Shown here in pieces: positions 5-28,560 of a stretch of DNA of 64,000 nucleotides (the first letter of the stretch is position 1; each line of letters starts with the position of its first letter). Made by a program: the position numbers and the translations under genes. The notes beneath the pieces were generated by a model, which was not told the origin of the DNA, made no database searches, and was given only the letters and a program-made list of their open reading frames with translations. The DNA comes from Shigella phage SSG23: the sequence record PQ351811, one strand, 5' to 3'.

Positions 5-115
5 ATGACTGAACAGGAACGAATGATGTTGATAGGTGGACCGGAGTTCACTAAATTTGATGCAATTCTTATTGCGTTGGGGTTTCTTATGATCTGTTGT
101 ATGGTGGCGCTATGA
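5..115 (+). CDS. small hydrophobic protein (36 aa)
   Basis: ATG at 5, stop TGA 113-115 overlapping next ATG (ATGA coupling); hydrophobic C-terminus; below track size cutoff. Confidence 0.3.
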   Translation: MTEQERMMLIGGPEFTKFDAILIALGFLMICCMVAL

Positions 116-3450: not shown

Positions 3451-3511
3451 TTAACAAAGCGGGTAGGGGAATGTACTACCCGCACTAAATTAGCTAACTG
3501 GAGGGCTTTCT

Positions 3512-3700
3512 ATGGCGTTTTATCTATGGTTGATTATAGTATGCTTTGTGCTGGGGTTGTGCTTCTATACTGGCGTATTCTGTTTGATTGGCTGGATAAA
3601 CGGAGGATTCTCTAGTATCATTTTGCTTGCCGGATCAATCGCCTCGTTTCTGTTGATATGGCTTTTTTCTTATTTGTTTGGTGAATGGGATTTATTATGA
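3512..3700 (+). CDS. small membrane protein
   Basis: Track ORF; SD GGAGGG upstream; hydrophobic. Confidence 0.5.
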   Translation: MAFYLWLIIVCFVLGLCFYTGVFCLIGWINGGFSSIILLAGSIASFLLIWLFSYLFGEWDLL

Positions 3701-3876
3701 ACAAATATATGTTTTGGGCGATCCTTGCCTATGTTGTGATTGCGGTAGTCTGGGGACTCTGTGTTATTGTCGCTTCCCTGATCTGGTGGGAATCACTTGG
3801 CGTGGGTTGCTTGATTAGTGGTGCATCCTCTCTTATTATGGGTGTGATTGTTGGGTTTCTTGTGTCGGGGGATTGA
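3697..3876 (+). CDS. small membrane protein
   Basis: Track ORF 3685..3876; ATG 3697 in ATGA overlap with upstream stop; hydrophobic. Confidence 0.5.
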   Translation: MNKYMFWAILAYVVIAVVWGLCVIVASLIWWESLGVGCLISGASSLIMGVIVGFLVSGD

Positions 3877-3878
3877 CA

Positions 3879-4094
3879 ATGGTTTTCTTCGGTCTTATTA
3901 TAATGGTGCTTAATGTCATTTGTGGCGTTGCTATGTTAGCTATGGCCTTTACTGTTCCTATGTCTGTTGATAGCGCCGCATCCGTAGGCGTGTTGGGAAT
4001 TGTAAACCTGTTTACCGCCCTAGCATGTTGGATCACCGGACGAGATGAGGTAATGTATTACTTTTATAAACGTAAACAGAGAAAAGGAAAATAA
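3879..4094 (+). CDS. small membrane protein
   Basis: Track ORF 3873..4094 (TTG); first ATG at 3879; hydrophobic. Confidence 0.5.
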   Translation: MVFFGLIIMVLNVICGVAMLAMAFTVPMSVDSAASVGVLGIVNLFTALACWITGRDEVMYYFYKRKQRKGK

Positions 4095-4095
4095 T

Positions 4096-4287
4096 ATGAG
4101 ATTTGCATTTGGTTTTACCGTGATGTTGATTATTGCTCTGAGTATGTGTACCGGAATGCTTGTATTTGGTCTTGCAAACGGATTTAGCATTTATAATGAT
4201 CCGTGGGTTGATTGGGGGATGGTTGCTGTTAATGCGATCCTGATTGGTGCTAATACAAGAACTCTATGCAGGATCACAGGAATCTAA
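4096..4287 (+). CDS. small membrane protein
   Basis: Track ORF; SD AAAGGAAAA upstream; hydrophobic. Confidence 0.5.
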   Translation: MRFAFGFTVMLIIALSMCTGMLVFGLANGFSIYNDPWVDWGMVAVNAILIGANTRTLCRITGI

Positions 4288-4315
4288 ATATTATCACTCA
4301 CAAAGGGGGTGAATA

Positions 4316-4705
4316 ATGTTTAAATTATCTAAAAGAAGCAAAGATCGGCTTGTTGGCGTACATCCAGACCTGGTAAAAGTCGTTCATCGTGCATTAGAAC
4401 TGACTCCGGTCGATTTTGGTATTACGGAAGGTGTGCGTAGTCTAGAAACGCAAAAGAAATATGTTGCGGAAGGTAAATCTAAGACTATGAAATCTCGTCA
4501 TCTTCACGGTTTCGCGGTTGACGTTGTAGCGTATCCTAAAGATAAGGATACATGGAACATGAAATATTACCGCATGATCGCTGATGCATTTAAACAAGCT
4601 GGTCGAGAATTGGGTGTTCCTGTTGAATGGGGTGGAGATTGGACCAGTTTCAAAGATGGTCCTCATCTACAATTGCCACACAGCAAATACCCAGATCCAA
4701 AATAA
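4316..4705 (+). CDS. peptidase M15-type endolysin (L-alanyl-D-glutamate peptidase / VanY-like)
   Basis: SRHLHGFAVDV (SxHxxGxAxD zinc motif) and C-terminal DGPHLQL His; SD AAAGGGGGTG; sits where T4 has lysozyme e. Confidence 0.8.
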   Translation: MFKLSKRSKDRLVGVHPDLVKVVHRALELTPVDFGITEGVRSLETQKKYVAEGKSKTMKSRHLHGFAVDVVAYPKDKDTWNMKYYRMIADAFKQAGRELGVPVEWGGDWTSFKDGPHLQLPHSKYPDPK

Positions 4706-4767
4706 AATATTAACCATCAACGGGGAGACAATCTAAGGATCTCTCCCCGTTCACTGGAGACTTTACC

Positions 4768-5253
4768 ATGAATATTGATGTAAAATTAGAAAGTAAAGAT
4801 TTGATTTATGCTGCGTGTGTATCTGCCGTAAATGGCATCATAGAACGCCGTAAGCGACGCAATTTTGCTGATGACCTAGATTCCATAGTCTCAATCAATT
4901 TAGGCCGTCAGACAGGGCATACAGACGCTACAATCAAGTTATATGACCATTATACGCGAAAAGGCTATAGTGTCTTTATCGTTTCAACGACGCGGGAACA
5001 TGCCAAAACGATCCGAGATCGCGGTCGCGGTGAAAATGTCAACATTTCAAATGTAGATTGCACGTCGATCCGAACTTTCCTGAATCCGATCACTTGGCGA
5101 GGTCGTAGTCTTGACAAAACAATTTTTATCCTAGATACTACCATGCGCGGATTTACTGACAGCGTATTGCAGTTTTTAGAGTTAAATCGACTTAGTGTTG
5201 GGATGGGTAATGTAGAAGACCAACCTATTTTCATTGGCTTAGGTATCAACTAA
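4768..5253 (+). CDS. hypothetical protein
   Basis: Track ORF; SD GGAGA upstream. Confidence 0.55.
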   Translation: MNIDVKLESKDLIYAACVSAVNGIIERRKRRNFADDLDSIVSINLGRQTGHTDATIKLYDHYTRKGYSVFIVSTTREHAKTIRDRGRGENVNISNVDCTSIRTFLNPITWRGRSLDKTIFILDTTMRGFTDSVLQFLELNRLSVGMGNVEDQPIFIGLGIN

Positions 5254-5390
5254 TGAAAAATAAAGATAGCGTAGCTCGTCGATTCCGTGCTACAATCAAT
5301 AAGAATCGTAAAGTCCAACCTGATAAACTCTATGGGGTTTTGGTTGGAAAAGTTAATGACGAACGTCCTGATCTATAAAAGAGGTGAATT

Positions 5391-5807
5391 ATGGAATTTA
5401 AAGCAATTCAAATCATGAAAGGTGAGCATAAAGGTACTATTATTGGTGGACACTTCGCGCCTATGATTCTGGTATCCGAACCGAAAGCACTGATCGGCGC
5501 TAAAGTAATTGTTAGTAAAACTTTCGCAGAAGACCATGTGATCACCGCAGAAGACGTCGATTCGCTGGAACTGCACACAACTAGCTTCCGTCCTGTTGTT
5601 GTAGATAATGGTGCTCCGGTTGTCGAAGGTGGTCAACACCTAAATGTTAACGTATTGTTACGAGAAATGTTGCTGGACGCGGTTGAACATCCTGAGAAGT
5701 ACCCGCAGCTTACAATTCGCGTTTCTGGTTACGCAGTGCGCTTCAATAGTCTGACTCCAGACCAGCAGCGTGACGTGATCGCGCGTACCTTTACCGAATC
5801 TCTCTAA
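5391..5807 (+). CDS. grcA: autonomous glycyl radical cofactor GrcA/YfiD-like protein
   Basis: C-terminus [49 protein letters not shown] with glycyl-radical motif RVSGYAVRF; SD AGAGGTG. Confidence 0.85.
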
Positions 5808-5817
5808 TTTTTCATCA

Positions 5818-5846
5818 AGCCAATCCGAAAAGGGTTGGCTTTTTCT
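5818..5846 (+). terminator. intrinsic terminator
   Basis: AGCCAATCC-GAAAA-GGGTTGGCT stem-loop followed by TTTTTC. Confidence 0.6.
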
Positions 5847-5893
5847 TTATAGTGTGATACGATGCAATCTCTTAATCAACTGAGGGTTTAATT

Positions 5894-6592
5894 ATGCATA
5901 CAATGGTTAAAATGGTCTTTGGATCTCACTTATACGGCCTTGATACTGAAAATTCCGATAAAGATTATCGTGGTATCTTTGTTCCAACTGCGAAAGAAAT
6001 TATCTTAGGATCGATGAAAGAACACTATGACCAAAGCACTAGCGGTCAAGGTATCAAGAACACCAAAGACGATATTGATGTTAATATGTTCAGTCTAAAA
6101 AGGTTTATCAACCTGGCATGTAAAGGTGATATTGGCGCTATTGACATTGTGCACGCGCCTAGTAACATGTTGATTGAATCCTCCAGAGAATGGGAATACA
6201 TCCGAACACATCGCGATAAATTCTATCATGTTGGTATGTGGGGTTGTTCTGGCTATCTCAAAAAGCAGGTAGCCAAATCTGAAAAGTATTTCAGTAACTG
6301 GAAAGATCTTTCTCATGCTCTGCGTGTTGGTTATCAGCTACTTGAAATCTATCAGACAGGTGATCTACAATTCCCACTCGCTCGACGTTCTTCTATTTTA
6401 GCGTGTAAGTTAGGAGAAAGAACCTTTGATAATGTGCGGGAAGAATTGAAAGATCTCTACGAACGTGTTAAACTCGCGCGTGAAGAGGCAAAGAAAAACG
6501 GGATGCCAGAAGAACCAGATGTTGACTTTTGGAAAGATTTATTAGAATATATTCATCTGACCGTTGTTCTTGAACACTATACCCGTGGTTAG
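5894..6592 (+). CDS. minimal nucleotidyltransferase (pol-beta superfamily fold)
   Basis: N-terminal FGSHLYGLDTENSDKDYRGIF matches hG[GS]x(9-13)DxD NTase motif; downstream DIDV acidic residue. Confidence 0.7.
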   Translation: MHTMVKMVFGSHLYGLDTENSDKDYRGIFVPTAKEIILGSMKEHYDQSTSGQGIKNTKDDIDVNMFSLKRFINLACKGDIGAIDIVHAPSNMLIESSREWEYIRTHRDKFYHVGMWGCSGYLKKQVAKSEKYFSNWKDLSHALRVGYQLLEIYQTGDLQFPLARRSSILACKLGERTFDNVREELKDLYERVKLAREEAKKNGMPEEPDVDFWKDLLEYIHLTVVLEHYTRG

Positions 6593-6613
6593 TTAATATA
6601 GGAGATTAATAAA

Positions 6614-11445: not shown

Positions 11446-13593
11446 ATGCCAGCAGAAATTAAAAACACTACAATTAACTCTCAAATTTGGCTTCCTCATA
11501 CTTTTGAATGTTCGATTGTTGCCGAGTCGGATGACCCGGAGAAAAGACGAAAAGGATATTTATGGAAAAAGAACGATAAGTTGATCACAATGACCGATGG
11601 TCCGTCTTTTCCGCTAAAGTCTGTTAAAGAGGAAGATAAAACAGGTTGGTCTGTTAATGTTCGTGGTTTTGCTCAAGATGATGAAAATCTTTCTGGCGAA
11701 TCCGTAGATATCGGTACGGAAAACTTCACCTTTGAACTTTTTGATAATCCATATGTGGAACATGTATACCCGCCTACGTCTTTTAATATTGGTGATGAAA
11801 TCAAGGCAAAGATTGTTTTTCGTAGTCATATCCAGCCTAATATTTCGGTTGACCTTTATTATAATGATGGTTTGGTTGATTCCGTTGACGGTGATCTGGG
11901 GTTAGACCATCGTGAATTTAAAATTGCAAAATTCGCGTGGCCTGAATTTTCCGGTACATATAAAATGGAATTGAGTGATGAACATGGTGAGGTTAAGTTT
12001 GTATATCCTTTCTATGCAAATATCACTGAAAATAAGGAAGTATTCAACGTACAAAAATATGCACCTGCCTATTTTACAGTAGAGGATGATGCACCGAATC
12101 AGGCGGAATATACTATTGTCCGATATCGACTAGAGCGCAATGATGGTAGTTTGGTTTATGAGTCTAAAGATAAGACTCTATACGTGACTAAACACGCTCA
12201 ACCGTCCGATGCTGGGGTTTATATTGCTTTTGTTCGTGCATATAAGGTTGTTAATGGACCTGGTGCTGGGACCGAATATGTGGATGGTGAAAAACATCGA
12301 TTCACAGTTAACGTAAAAGAAAACGAATTTTTTAGCCGTGATTTTAGTGCTATTGATTTTCGTTATCCTTCTGGGTCTACTGTAAACCTTGATATGCCAG
12401 TGATGCAAGCCGATAGCTCATGGAATCGTCATTATGGTATGCTTACTAACAACGTTTACTTTACGTGGATGCTTGGCGGTAAGAAACTACAAAGTAAAAA
12501 ATATGGTGATGAAGGATATGACCGAATCACATTATCTGGATTGCAATATGATAACAGCGTTGCGCTTCAATTGTTGGTTGCTCCTGCCAATCCAGCGGGT
12601 GAACAGGTGATTCCTAACGGTCGCCCATTATTTTATGATCGTCGTATGCTTGAGATTTATGATAAAGAGTATGATTATCGTAATATTGAAGTGGGTGAAC
12701 CGATTGTTCTCAAGATCGTAGATCCTGAACCGCCAGCTAGTGATGATCCTGAACAAACGCGAACTTTGGTTATCACCAAAAACGACGTTAAAGTAACGGA
12801 ACTTCCACTAGGTACTAAGGAATATAAGATCACCGACTCTGCGGACCGAGACCATAACGGCATCTGGGCGCATGAATATCGTGATAGTCCGAGTAAAGAT
12901 CCATTTAGTGCACATACTGATTTTGATATTGCTGGTCGTTCGACCTATCATGTTGAAGTAGTGCCGAATATGGAGTTTGACGGTCCTCATCCTGTGCAGG
13001 TGACGGAGGGTGATACCCTGACGCTAGAAGCAACCATGCTAAAACCGCCAGCCTCATATGTTCCGACTTATGAGTTTAGTAAAAACGGTGTTAAAATGGA
13101 AATGGAAGACCCAAGAAGTCCGATTTACCGTAAAGCAAACGTTACGCTAGAGGATGCTGGTGTTTATCGATTTGTTGCATTTGCTGATAAAAACAGCAAC
13201 GATGAACTAGATCCTGGCGAGATTGTCGGGTATACAAAATATGTTCAGGTTGTAGTTAATAAACGTCCTGTGCGACCGGATGAACCTAGACCGGAAGTTA
13301 AAATTGTTACTATGTTTAACGAGTTTAGCAAAGGTCGATTTAGTCCGTGTCCGTATTGGGTAATTGATGAGCTTGTCGAATTGATGGAAGACCCGCATGG
13401 CTGGATGGATAAACTTGAAGATTCTGTCTACTATGACTGGCAAATCACTATCTTTAATGAGTTCCTAAAAGGCAAGGATTTGTATCTTCAAGATTCGTGT
13501 AATGGTTACTGGGCGATTGTCCGCCAGAAGGATATGTCTATTGAAACTGGCTATGGTCGATTCAAACACTACTATACAAATGGACGTGAATAA
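11446..13593 (+). CDS. large Ig-like-domain protein (715 aa)
   Basis: Repeated Ig-like signatures DAGVYIAFVRAY and DAGVYRFVAFA; candidate virion decoration/adhesin-like protein. Confidence 0.65.
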   Translation: MPAEIKNTTINSQIWLPHTFECSIVAESDDPEKRRKGYLWKKNDKLITMTDGPSFPLKSVKEEDKTGWSVNVRGFAQDDENLSGESVDIGTENFTFELFDNPYVEHVYPPTSFNIGDEIKAKIVFRSHIQPNISVDLYYNDGLVDSVDGDLGLDHREFKIAKFAWPEFSGTYKMELSDEHGEVKFVYPFYANITENKEVFNVQKYAPAYFTVEDDAPNQAEYTIVRYRLERNDGSLVYESKDKTLYVTKHAQPSDAGVYIAFVRAYKVVNGPGAGTEYVDGEKHRFTVNVKENEFFSRDFSAIDFRYPSGSTVNLDMPVMQADSSWNRHYGMLTNNVYFTWMLGGKKLQSKKYGDEGYDRITLSGLQYDNSVALQLLVAPANPAGEQVIPNGRPLFYDRRMLEIYDKEYDYRNIEVGEPIVLKIVDPEPPASDDPEQTRTLVITKNDVKVTELPLGTKEYKITDSADRDHNGIWAHEYRDSPSKDPFSAHTDFDIAGRSTYHVEVVPNMEFDGPHPVQVTEGDTLTLEATMLKPPASYVPTYEFSKNGVKMEMEDPRSPIYRKANVTLEDAGVYRFVAFADKNSNDELDPGEIVGYTKYVQVVVNKRPVRPDEPRPEVKIVTMFNEFSKGRFSPCPYWVIDELVELMEDPHGWMDKLEDSVYYDWQITIFNEFLKGKDLYLQDSCNGYWAIVRQKDMSIETGYGRFKHYYTNGRE

Positions 13594-24773: not shown

Positions 24774-26636
24774 ATGGAAAAACTAATCAAAGACATTACA
24801 GAGATCGCAACGGGTAAAGAAAACGAAGTAAGCAAAGAGAACGCGAACAAAGACGCGCGAACATTCCCGACACGTCGAGATCTGATTGCTGGTGCTGTGT
24901 CTAAACAGATTGCTAAAACCGTGTTACCTGAGCACATCTATAAAGCGCATGTAGACGGTGATATTCATTATCATGATATGGATTATGCACCCGCTATGCC
25001 GTTTACTAACTGCTGTCTTGTTAATCTCAAAGACATGTTAGAGAATGGTTTTAAATTGGGTAGCGCACAAATCGAAAGTCCTAAATCGATCGGCGTTGCT
25101 TGTGCTGTAACCGCTCAAATTATCGCACAGGTGGCAAGTCATCAATATGGCGGGACCACAATTGCAAACATCGATCAGGTTTTAGCGCCATACGTTGAGA
25201 AAACATATCATAAACACCTTGCTGATGCAGAAACCTACGGAATCAAAGCTGATACTCTCTATGCACAAGAGAAGACAGAAAAAGAAACGCTAGACGGATA
25301 TCAGGCGTTGGAATATGAGATCAACACTTTGTTCTCTACCAACGGTCAAACACCTTTTGTGACTTTAACCTTTGGTATGGGTACTAGCTGGGAAGAAAAA
25401 CTGATTCAGAAAGCGATCCTGAAAGTTCGAACTAAAGGTTTAGGTAAAGATGGTATAACTCCGGTGTTTCCTAAGCTGGTGATGTTCTTAGAAGAAGGAT
25501 TAAACCTTAAACCGGAAGATCCGAACTACGACATTAAGCAACTTGCATTGGAATGTTCTAGTAAGCGTCTTTACCCTGATTATATCTCTGCGAAGAATAA
25601 CCGTAGTATCACTGGATCTAGTGTTCCGGTTAGCCCGATGGGTTGTCGTAGCTTCCTGGGTGTGTGGCATAATGAGAAAGGCGAAGAAGTATTAGATGGA
25701 CGTAATAACTTAGGTGTTGTGACTCTGAATCTTCCGCGTATTGCACTTATTGCCGCGCGTCGTGCTGGTAAAGCGTCTGTAATGCGCAGAATTGAGCTAT
25801 TCGAACAAGAGCTAGCTAATCGTCTGCCTATTTGCTTTGATGCGCTCATGAGTCGCGTAGACGCTTTAAAAGGGGCTAAAGCCAATGTTGCTCCTGTACT
25901 GTATACCGAAGGTGCATTTTTCCGTATTCATCAAAACGATGAAATTTTGGAAGTGCTGAAAGATGGTCGCGCTAGTATCTCTCTTGGGTATATTGGTTTA
26001 CATGAAGTGTTGAGCGTCCTGTTTGGTGTTCATCCGTTTGATTCGGAAGATGCGCAGCGATACGGTAAACATATTCTTAAAATCCTGCGTCATTATACTG
26101 AAAAATGGAAGGACGAAACCGGACTTGGGTTTAGTCTTTACGGCACGCCAGCCGAGAGCCTTTGTTATCGATTTAATCGACTGGACCGAGAGCAATTTGG
26201 TATTGTTAAGGGTGCTACCGATAAAGACTGGTACACCAACTCATTCCACCTTGACGTAGACCGGAAAGTTACACCGTTTGAGAAAATCGACTTTGAGAAA
26301 GACTATCACTGGCTGGCGTCTGGTGGTATGATCTCTTATGTTGAGTTCCCGGACATGAAAAACAACATTAAAGGGCTTGAAACTGTAGTAGACTATGCAA
26401 TGGATAAATTGCACTACTTCGGTGTTAATACTCCTTCTGATGTATGTCATGTATGCGGATCTACTAAGGAAATGAGAGCGACCGAGTCTGGTTTTGTTTG
26501 CCCTGATTGCGGCAATGACAATCTGGAAAAGATGAATGTTATCCGTCGCGTTAGTGGATATCTTGGATCTGTTGACCTGCGTCCATTCAACCACGGGAAA
26601 CACTCCGAGATGGTAAACCGCGTTAAACACATGTAA
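24774..26636 (+). CDS. nrdD: anaerobic ribonucleoside-triphosphate reductase
   Basis: 620 aa; C-terminal Zn site CHVCGS..CPDCG and glycyl-radical motif RVSGYLG. Confidence 0.92.
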   Translation: MEKLIKDITEIATGKENEVSKENANKDARTFPTRRDLIAGAVSKQIAKTVLPEHIYKAHVDGDIHYHDMDYAPAMPFTNCCLVNLKDMLENGFKLGSAQIESPKSIGVACAVTAQIIAQVASHQYGGTTIANIDQVLAPYVEKTYHKHLADAETYGIKADTLYAQEKTEKETLDGYQALEYEINTLFSTNGQTPFVTLTFGMGTSWEEKLIQKAILKVRTKGLGKDGITPVFPKLVMFLEEGLNLKPEDPNYDIKQLALECSSKRLYPDYISAKNNRSITGSSVPVSPMGCRSFLGVWHNEKGEEVLDGRNNLGVVTLNLPRIALIAARRAGKASVMRRIELFEQELANRLPICFDALMSRVDALKGAKANVAPVLYTEGAFFRIHQNDEILEVLKDGRASISLGYIGLHEVLSVLFGVHPFDSEDAQRYGKHILKILRHYTEKWKDETGLGFSLYGTPAESLCYRFNRLDREQFGIVKGATDKDWYTNSFHLDVDRKVTPFEKIDFEKDYHWLASGGMISYVEFPDMKNNIKGLETVVDYAMDKLHYFGVNTPSDVCHVCGSTKEMRATESGFVCPDCGNDNLEKMNVIRRVSGYLGSVDLRPFNHGKHSEMVNRVKHM

Positions 26637-26707: not shown

Positions 26708-26739
26708 GCTCACATCGAAAACAACGAGAGGACAACATG

Positions 26740-27276
26740 ATGATGTTTTGTGTACTGAGCAAAGAAGTTAAACTTCGTAAACTGGAAATTGGCGATGGTG
26801 TTGTTGTTAAAATGCACGCTAGCACATTGACTAGTTTTAATTTAAAGGAAAGTTTTTTTATTAGAGGAACGGTGGTTAATATCTGCTGGAGTAAAGGCGA
26901 AGGAATCCGTAGCTTTTGCGTAATTGACGATGATAATAACCTGTATGTGATTCGCTATCATAATAATTCTATATTGGTCTATACCGACAATTCACGAGAA
27001 TTGTATACTCTTGAATTTGTTAAGCGTACTGATTGCGATCGATTTGTTCGTGCTTATGAAGAAGATGGCTGTTTTGCGACTGAAACAGAAACACATGAAT
27101 ATGTTCCTATGGAAGTAGGAGCCGAAATTAAACACAAGATCACGGATCGTATTTTTAAGGTTGTGGCGGTTGCTCATACTCAATTTGTAGCGCAAGCGCC
27201 GGATGAAGAATTTATTATCTACAATATTGGTAATGCAAGTTCTCACTTTCATAATGTACAATATCGCGATCTTTGA
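26740..27276 (+). CDS. hypothetical protein
   Basis: Track ORF 26737..27276; GAGAGGA SD 7 nt upstream of second ATG. Confidence 0.55.
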   Translation: MMFCVLSKEVKLRKLEIGDGVVVKMHASTLTSFNLKESFFIRGTVVNICWSKGEGIRSFCVIDDDNNLYVIRYHNNSILVYTDNSRELYTLEFVKRTDCDRFVRAYEEDGCFATETETHEYVPMEVGAEIKHKITDRIFKVVAVAHTQFVAQAPDEEFIIYNIGNASSHFHNVQYRDL

Positions 27277-27293
27277 AATAATGTGAGGTGACT

Positions 27294-27839
27294 ATGAAAT
27301 CATTAAACCGTAAACGTAAAGCACAACGACACATGGAACACGCAAAATCAATTAATGTTGATATGACATTAGAACATATTGATGATGATTCATGTTATGA
27401 TGATGAACCAACAAATAAGATCCCTGTATGGATGGTTACGGTAAGAATTGACAATAAACAGATCGAAGAGACACACGATGCTTTAGCCTTGTTTCACGAA
27501 TGGCATCCGGTTAATATCGGGTGGGAGGAAAACAAAGCAAAAGGTCAATACTTCCTCACCTGTTCGTGTGGTGTAGCCGGATGCGCTGGGTATTGGGAAC
27601 CTGTTGTGATTCGGGTTAAAAAGGATACTGTACAATGGTCTGTGCGTAAAGAGCAGGGATACAGCAAAGGTGTGATCGGTACTGGCGAGAATGTGATTTA
27701 TCTTAAACGTAAAGATTACGAAGAGTGCCGGAAGTTTATTTTGAATATGCTGCGTTCTTATCCAGATGACAATTTCATGTTTGCCGGAGAGTACCTACCA
27801 GGCCGCCTGTGGTTGAAATCTCTCGAAAAATTTAAATAA
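27294..27839 (+). CDS. hypothetical protein
   Basis: Track ORF 27288 (GTG), ATG 27294 after GAGGTG SD; CSCGVAGCAGYW Cys cluster. Confidence 0.55.
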   Translation: MKSLNRKRKAQRHMEHAKSINVDMTLEHIDDDSCYDDEPTNKIPVWMVTVRIDNKQIEETHDALALFHEWHPVNIGWEENKAKGQYFLTCSCGVAGCAGYWEPVVIRVKKDTVQWSVRKEQGYSKGVIGTGENVIYLKRKDYEECRKFILNMLRSYPDDNFMFAGEYLPGRLWLKSLEKFK

Positions 27840-27914: not shown

Positions 27915-28067
27915 ATGTGGACTTTACTGATTTGGGAAACTGAAAACGCACAAGTAGAAATCCGTGAATACGAATACCTAAGCCCAGCTTATCTATTGGC
28001 ATCTCGCGGCGGTTACTATAAAGCGCAGATTGTAAACGAGTTCGGGGTAATTGAATATGAGTTCTGA
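27915..28067 (+). CDS. small hypothetical early protein (50 aa)
   Basis: ATG after AGGAGAATCAAATATG; within track ORF 27840..28067. Confidence 0.45.
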   Translation: MWTLLIWETENAQVEIREYEYLSPAYLLASRGGYYKAQIVNEFGVIEYEF

Positions 28068-28560
28068 TACATACGGCAAACTACGCTATGCCGATATTAA
28101 AGATTGTGATATGGTTAATGGTGAGGGAGTGAGAGTCTCCCTTTACGTTACCGGATGTTCACACGCATGTGATGGTTGCTTTAATTCCAGTATACTCAAT
28201 CCTAAGAACGGGGAACCATTCACCGATGATACAATGGGATTGATTCTGGATCTGCTTAGACCTGATTTTATTCAGGGGCTAACATTCTTAGGTGGAGATC
28301 CACTGTATAAACGCAATTTAAAGGGTGTACAGCGGATCATCGATGAAGTAAAATCATGGATGCCAAATAAAGATATTTGGCTATGGTCCGGTTATACCCT
28401 TGACCAATTGAATGATGAGCAAAGAAAAATTGTAGAATCGGTTGACATGTTCATCGATGGGCGTTATATTAAAGATATGCCAACGAAGAAGCCGTGGCGG
28501 GGGTCTGACAATCAAGTACAATACAAGATTGTTAATAGTATTCCCGTGAAAATTATTTGA
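28057..28560 (+). CDS. nrdG: anaerobic ribonucleotide reductase activating protein (radical SAM)
   Basis: Cys cluster GCSHACDGCFN (CxxxCxxC-type); track ORF 28051 (TTG), ATG 28057. Confidence 0.88.
   Translation: MSSDTYGKLRYADIKDCDMVNGEGVRVSLYVTGCSHACDGCFNSSILNPKNGEPFTDDTMGLILDLLRPDFIQGLTFLGGDPLYKRNLKGVQRIIDEVKSWMPNKDIWLWSGYTLDQLNDEQRKIVESVDMFIDGRYIKDMPTKKPWRGSDNQVQYKIVNSIPVKII

Follow-up and report, generated by a model that had tools for sequence, protein, structure and literature searches.

Two spare parts have been validated experimentally, YfiD (GrcA) of Escherichia coli and Y06I of phage T4. According to PMC8683613, which cites Wagner et al. (2001, BBRC 285:456), these are the only two; both receive their radical from the activase of pyruvate formate-lyase (PFL) and both reactivate O2-cleaved PFL, and the rescue of PFL by Y06I was shown in vitro in 2001 (Wagner et al., via the same paper). 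The spare-part mechanism on PFL is also covered by PMC12338860. In YfiD, the disordered segment 1-60 supports binding to the cleaved enzyme as well as radical installation (Andorfer et al., 2021, PMC8683613), and residues 61-127 have the same fold as PFL 693-759 (PMC8683613). The same paper raises the speculation that other glycyl radical enzymes, too, might be repaired by some of the GrcA-like proteins. An NMR structure of E. coli GrcA/YfiD is available as PDB 6OWR. T4 Vs.6 is the SwissProt entry Y06I and carries the RefSeq name 'autonomous glycyl radical cofactor GrcA'; the gene was listed in 2006 as a conserved Gly_radical ORF in six of six T4-like genomes, RB49 included (Nolan et al., PMC1524935). 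The class III ribonucleotide reductase (RNR) NrdD of both T4 and E. coli takes its electrons from formate (PMC4390871). In the literature searched, no in vivo phenotype was found for any phage vs.6/GrcA mutant.

Here we describe a gene of this family in a 64,000-nucleotide stretch of DNA from Shigella phage SSG23 (PQ351811; hereafter the window), a Krischvirus (Straboviridae), an RB49-like relative of T4. Phage GrcA is not new; the family is known and widespread among phages, and the window gene is an unremarkable instance of it. A tblastn search returned 1,580 phage records with vs.6 homologues, carried by T4-like phages of Escherichia, Klebsiella, Salmonella, Cronobacter and Aeromonas and by T5-like phages, many of them annotated as GrcA. 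Many Krischvirus records already name the gene 'autonomous glycyl radical cofactor', and the labels in SFHK24, in the RefSeq entry of RB49 and in many relatives include 'hypothetical protein', 'Vs.6', 'pyruvate formate-lyase' and even 'ribonucleotide reductase subunit'.

Identity and setting of the gene at 5391-5807

The ORF at 5391..5807 (+) runs from ATG to TAA and encodes a product of 138 aa, in which the protein sequence quoted in an earlier reading made from the letters alone (the sequence-only reading) was present. It is a stand-alone gene with its own Shine-Dalgarno (SD) sequence, start, stop and terminator, and the preceding ORF ends at 5378. The features of the locus are as follows.

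4316-4705: endolysin, syntenic with T4 lysozyme e
4768-5253: vs.8, assigned by gene order
Between vs.8 and vs.6: ORF of 41 aa, assigned by gene order
5381..5387, + strand: Shine-Dalgarno sequence GAGGTGA, 3 nt ahead of the ATG, read from the sequence
5391..5807, + strand: vs.6/Y06I orthologue, phage GrcA-like autonomous glycyl radical cofactor, assigned from 6OWR, TIGR04365 and synteny with RB49 and T4 vs.6
5391..5603, + strand: N-terminal half, residues 1-71, the counterpart of disordered YfiD 1-60 in alignments
5604..5804, + strand: glycyl radical domain at the C-terminus (residues 72-138), the counterpart of YfiD 61-127 and PflB 693-759
5718..5738, + strand: radical-site heptapeptide RVSGYAV, residues 110-116, from alignment with GrcA and PflB
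5817..5851, + strand: intrinsic terminator directly 3' of vs.6, where it closes the transcription unit, with a 10-bp stem (5817-5841), five G-C pairs and a T run
5894-6592: nrdC.11 nucleotidyltransferase, assigned by gene order

The sequence-only reading had proposed a GrcA-like protein in a phage that also carries nrdD and nrdG, and this was borne out. The E. coli GrcA structure 6OWR matched the vs.6 protein at E=1.5e-33 (residues 37-138 on 29-127), and both nrd genes were located in the window (see below). The C-terminus of PflB (structure 1H16) matched at E=5e-27, PHROG 1209 matched across the full length (E=2.7e-51), and Pfam Gly_radical (PF01228) scored 61 bits (cutoff 22) over residues 78-119. 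The top NCBIfam model was GrcA TIGR04365 (E=1.5e-39, residues 37-138 aligned), and the score of 135.2 bits lies below its equivalog cutoff of 170 bits. In a calibration of this model, E. coli GrcA scored 234 bits and T4 Y06I 151.1. As the validated Y06I also falls below the cutoff, the latter parts bacterial from phage forms and not functional from non-functional ones. By sequence comparison, the protein has every testable feature of the GrcA/Y06I family except a score above this equivalog cutoff.

The two halves of the protein differ in their distance from bacterial GrcA. The last 60 residues were identical to E. coli K-12 GrcA (from NC_000913) at 55 of 60 positions (92%) and to Salmonella/Klebsiella-type GrcA at up to 95%, whereas the N-terminal part was identical to K-12 GrcA at 13 of 53 positions (25%), with small insertions. 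The C-terminal near-identity and N-terminal divergence that the sequence-only reading had described therefore hold in alignments, and so does the conserved glycine, whose absence it had said would refute its proposal. Within RVSGYAV, G113 (codon 5727-5729) is predicted to carry the radical; it aligned to GrcA G102 and PflB G734. Five substitutions relative to LRRETLEDAVKH lie in the helix of the C half, R to L, T to M, E to L and K to E among them. From residue 3 on, the N half is collinear with bacterial GrcAs, with the motifs xIQIxK and ARxIVxKxxxxED.

Like E. coli GrcA/YfiD, the window protein is small and stands alone; the two are collinear over the whole length, have the same context around the radical glycine and presumably share the activase PflA and the client PflB. 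E. coli GrcA is a stress/FNR-regulated chromosomal gene, in contrast to the window gene, which is phage-encoded and part of an early-gene cluster. The last 60 residues were identical to PflB (693-759; 1H16/2PFL) at 50 of 60 positions (83%), and the helix segment REMLLDA looks PflB-like, being nearer to PflB than to E. coli GrcA. Unlike PflB, the window protein is free-standing, has 15 kDa and lacks the 10-stranded barrel and the catalytic C418/C419, and its tail is GrcA-like and not PflB-like. Capture of a 3' fragment of pflB instead of grcA was considered as an origin of the gene and ruled out by the N-terminal collinearity with GrcA together with the GrcA-type tail. A single-sequence AlphaFold2 model had a mean pLDDT of 42.8 and was too poor for a fold search, agreeing with YfiD 61-127 only in the secondary-structure order of the C half; the fold was taken as settled because of the 92% identity to a solved structure.

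T4 Vs.6 has the same two-part architecture, and the N-terminal phage motifs KAxQIxxGxHKGTI and IVSKTFxED are common to both proteins. The C-terminal 60 aa of the two were 90% identical, including an identical RVSGYAV, but the N halves only 40%. With 120 aa against 138 aa, the T4 protein lacks ~14 residues (window 18-31) and a four-residue insertion before the radical domain. The GrcA homologues of T5-like phages (DT57C gp049; the T5 'acetyltransferase-related protein') share a radical domain of about 80% aa identity, have 122 aa and occur in NrdD-encoding phages. They differ in belonging to the Demerecviridae, in lying in a tRNA-region context, in an N half that is barely alignable and in saturated DNA.

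Over 4300-6600, identity was 100% to Shigella phage SFHK24 and 97% to RB49, Phi1, GEC-3S and ~55 other Krischvirus genomes. The gene was found at the same locus in 58 independently sequenced Krischvirus genomes with 90-100% nucleotide identity, the RB49 counterpart being RB49p099, named vs.6. The window, RB49 and T4 share the gene order endolysin, vs.8, small ORF, vs.6, nrdC.11, regB, vs.1, vs, tk.4, tk, with T4 reading e ... vs.8, vs.7, vs.6 ... regB, vs.1, vs, tk.4, tk. Among the downstream neighbours, vs.1 carries an SLT domain and tk.4 a Macro domain. As judged by synteny, the window gene is the orthologue of T4 vs.6. The endolysin at 4316-4705, in the position of T4 e, is a Peptidase_M15_4 protein (L-alanyl-D-glutamate or D-Ala-D-Ala peptidase type), and the T4 enzyme is a muramidase. 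Further along, the ORF at 11446-13593 (715 aa), which adjoins an rI.-1-like gene and is hypothetical in SFHK24, had only a sub-cutoff Ig_3 match in Pfam.

On account of its strong SD and its terminator, vs.6 was taken as an expressed gene. Sigma-70-like sites were no commoner than in shuffles (9 vs 7.7), and no MotA-box-like site was found within 3500-6000. The T4-type late promoter TATAAATA was absent within several kb of vs.6, which fits the early-gene region around it. The gene is probably transcribed by readthrough from the upstream early genes.

Age of the gene and probable replacement of the radical module in relatives

A nucleotide search of 5,426 complete E. coli genomes returned matches to only the last ~185 nt of the gene, at no more than 76% identity, with pflB as the best match followed by grcA and tdcE. 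The last 60 codons were 75.6% identical to E. coli grcA (dS 2.8, dN 0.09) and 75.0% identical to pflB. Against 80 bacterial grcA genes, each from a different species of the Enterobacterales, Pasteurellales or Vibrionales, the closest was 79.4% identical and the median identity was 73.9%, pS being 0.61 or more; synonymous sites are saturated between the window copy and bacterial grcA. Within the phages, dN/dS of the N half was 0.11 against RB49 and 0.21 against JK32, and that of the C half 0.04 against RB49. Judged by these distances, the window copy is an old phage gene held by protein-level selection and is neither a recent capture nor a chimera. The alignment to host grcA that the sequence-only reading had suggested for dating thus points to an old acquisition, and no trace was seen of the chimera with host DNA that it had named as a possible flaw.

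The coding region 5625-5804 has a GC content of 0.49 and a GC3 of 0.48, compared with a GC3 of 0.37 in the N half, a GC content of 0.41 in the window and a mean gene GC3 of 0.36. The higher GC3 of the C half, the one host-like trait left in the window copy, could be residual foreign composition or could reflect amino-acid and codon constraint. Bacterial loci that matched from residue 3 or 5 through 138 (L039, L043, L051, L068) were considered as phage-type copies and proved to be normal GrcA genes. An enterobacterial-type grcA was seen on a contig labelled Vagococcus sp. WN89Y (L010), a Firmicute, where it is probably due to contamination or mislabelling, and another on the 276-kb plasmid unnamed4 of Klebsiella sp. 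WOUb02 (L018).

The radical domain of T4 vs.6 has a different history at the DNA level. Its last 180 nt (L003:6561-6740) were 97.8% identical to E. coli K-12 grcA (L004:2070-2249), with a dS of 0.07, compared with 75% and saturated synonymous sites for the window's domain, and nothing comparable to the grcA-like tract of T4 was present in the window copy. The high identity sets in sharply at the EGGQH codons and runs as far as the stop codon, and the 5' half is typical T4 DNA with a GC3 of 0.18. The tract was 97% identical to Escherichia grcA and at most 91% identical to that of other genera, which indicates a transfer from host to phage; the tract has the look of a recent gene conversion in this direction. 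About 500 phage records have a tract at least 95% identical in nucleotides to E. coli grcA, and in all of them it is confined to the 3' half.

Another kind of exchange was found within Krischvirus. In Shigella phage JK32 (L087:1690-2560, compared with window 5578-5896) and about nine other records, the N half is as in the window, with 96-100% nucleotide identity up to ~5577. From window 5578 to 5802 these phages carry another radical module, 58-71% identical in nucleotides and with the motifs AGHHLN and RISGYAT, which still scored best against GrcA/PFL models. An insertion at about window 5870 holds an HNH endonuclease gene of ~590 bp, and from 5897 the sequences are again 93-100% identical. 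The JK32 pattern resembles a cassette replacement associated with a homing endonuclease, and the window allele may be the target of the JK32 HNH enzyme. Together, the comparisons suggest that the radical-domain cassette has been replaced recurrently, in one case in association with a homing-type endonuclease. A more general reading, in which the phage spare-part gene consists of two modules, the radical one being replaced over and over through recombination at the edge of the structured domain and the window keeping an old RB49-type module, is put forward tentatively, as possible but more doubtful than not. No mention of module swapping in phage vs.6 was found in the literature searched.

Proposed client of the spare part and rival readings

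The window gene is the Krischvirus Vs.6/Y06I and, by analogy with the characterized proteins, very probably encodes a phage spare part of the GrcA (YfiD) type acting on host PflB; we infer for it the activity of T4 Y06I and E. coli YfiD. Both pflB and pflA are present in the host. Host PflB would be cut by O2 at its radical glycine G734, the N-terminal half of the phage protein would aid docking on the cleaved enzyme, and residues 72-138 would stand in for the lost module, PflB 693-759. Host PflA, the radical SAM PFL activase, would then take a hydrogen off G113 of the RVSGYAV loop. From there the radical would move to PflB C419, so that the conversion of pyruvate and CoA to acetyl-CoA and formate could resume. 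Divergence in the N half and near-invariance in the C half are as expected from the domain roles in YfiD, with residues 1-60 serving in binding and activation and 61-127 providing the PFL fold. Points that speak against the proposal are the 25% identity to E. coli GrcA and the small insertions of the N half, the part important for docking in YfiD, the five substitutions in the C-half helix, and the sub-cutoff TIGR04365 score, although Y06I shares the latter. The role in sustaining host PFL that the sequence-only reading had advanced agrees with the in vitro result for T4 Y06I described in PMC8683613.

In an infected cell with its own gene expression turned off, the supply of fermentative ATP and acetyl-CoA would thereby be kept up. 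The same would hold for formate, the electron donor of T4-type NrdD, and dNTP synthesis by NrdD/NrdG could go on under anaerobic or microaerobic conditions. As NrdD uses formate, upkeep of PFL would also maintain the reductant of the phage enzyme. The two genes concerned are listed below.

24774..26636, + strand: nrdD, class III anaerobic glycyl radical RNR (PF13597, 585 bits; NF006732, 880 bits)
28051..28560, + strand: nrdG, radical-SAM activase of NrdD (TIGR02491, 166 bits, cutoff 126)

NrdG was the sole protein with a CxxxCxxC motif among the window reading frames of at least 90 aa. Both genes lie 19-23 kb downstream of vs.6 on the same strand, and at this distance they do not form one operon with it; the link between vs.6 and nrdD/nrdG would be a metabolic and not a physical one. 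The window's nrdD is uninterrupted, and T4 nrdD has a group I intron with I-TevII. Between nrdD and nrdG, where T4 has the homing endonuclease gene mobC, the window has two ORFs with no Pfam match (26737-27276 and 27288-27839).

The presence of NrdD and NrdG in the same genome also favours a more direct connection, in which vs.6 would be activated by NrdG and replace the C-terminal radical segment of O2-cleaved phage NrdD. The radical motif of the window's NrdD, RVSGY (residues 592-596, window 26547-26561), is the same pentapeptide as in vs.6, PFL and GrcA, and differs from RTCGY in T4 NrdD; the radical domain of class III RNRs (G580 in T4) belongs to the same Pfam Gly_radical superfamily, and in vs.6 as in NrdD the chain continues for about 25 residues beyond the glycine. 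GrcA homologues and NrdD (found in 2,910 phage records) are moreover present in the same groups, the T4-like and T5-like enterobacterial phages, as seen in group-level counts, and the speculation of PMC8683613 on the repair of other glycyl radical enzymes points the same way. On the local motif, cross-recognition by the two activases, NrdG and PflA, is a possibility. However, BLASTP of the vs.6 protein against the window's NrdD returned nothing beyond RVSGY (E about 1-2). The C-terminus of NrdD (...CHVCGS...CPDCGN...IRRVSGYLGSVDLRPFNHGKHSEMVNRVKHM) consists of a Zn ribbon before the glycine loop and an unrelated tail, and its activase is NrdG; vs.6 lacks the Zn-ribbon cysteines and so has no domain like the segment that NrdD loses on O2 cleavage. 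Its radical domain was instead 83% identical to PflB 700-759 and 92% to GrcA, and a C half held this close to PflB and GrcA is as expected if PFL and PflA are the constraining partners. Y06I also keeps RVSGY though T4 NrdD reads RTCGY, and it acts on PFL with the PFL activase (PMC8683613). We therefore consider it very unlikely that vs.6 is a spare part for NrdD, and the patching of oxygen-damaged NrdD, which the sequence-only reading had entertained, found no backing in a similarity limited to RVSGY.

The remaining readings concern the host side or the gene itself. That the main client is another host enzyme of the PFL family, such as the 2-ketobutyrate formate-lyase TdcE, is very unlikely. 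The 3' half of vs.6 also matches E. coli tdcE, at 74% nucleotide identity, and the C-termini of TdcE and PflB are related closely enough to make cross-rescue plausible, but the top E. coli matches were pflB and grcA for both DNA and protein. TdcE, moreover, is a minor, conditionally expressed enzyme, and the only biochemical data concern PflB (PMC8683613). A decoy or inhibitor that titrates PflA, or sits on PflB without restoring catalysis and so redirects host metabolism, could account for a docking N half diverged from that of host GrcA. Such a role is highly improbable, given that all elements of the catalytic site are kept at a dN/dS of 0.04, including a glycine that a decoy does not need, and that the T4 orthologue restores activity (PMC8683613). 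Finally, the C-half GC3, above both the phage average and that of its own N half, and the truly host-like tract at the equivalent place in T4 might raise the suspicion of an artefact, either a chimera assembled with host DNA or a recently captured and now decaying grcA or pflB. The chance of this is practically negligible in view of the distances to the 5,426 E. coli genomes (at most 76%, last ~185 nt only) and the 80 bacterial grcA genes (at most 79.4%, pS at least 0.61), the same gene at the same place in 58 independently sequenced Krischvirus genomes, and an intact frame with SD, terminator and purifying selection on both halves. A spare part for host PflB thus remains our preferred reading.

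Meaning for T4-like phages

As a discovery the assignment adds little, and its use lies in the clean-up of annotations. The pattern of module replacement may be of interest for mosaicism and homing endonucleases in T4-like phages. If the exchange is adaptive, phages may re-fit the spare part to the PFL and activase of their current host; alternatively, homing endonucleases may target invariant sequence. In Krischvirus, whose NrdD likewise has RVSGY, cross-activation of both substrates by NrdG and PflA is conceivable. The gene is a compact case of a phage auxiliary gene that would repair a host enzyme and not replace it, and its in vivo rationale would most plausibly be fermentative energy together with formate for the phage's own anaerobic RNR.
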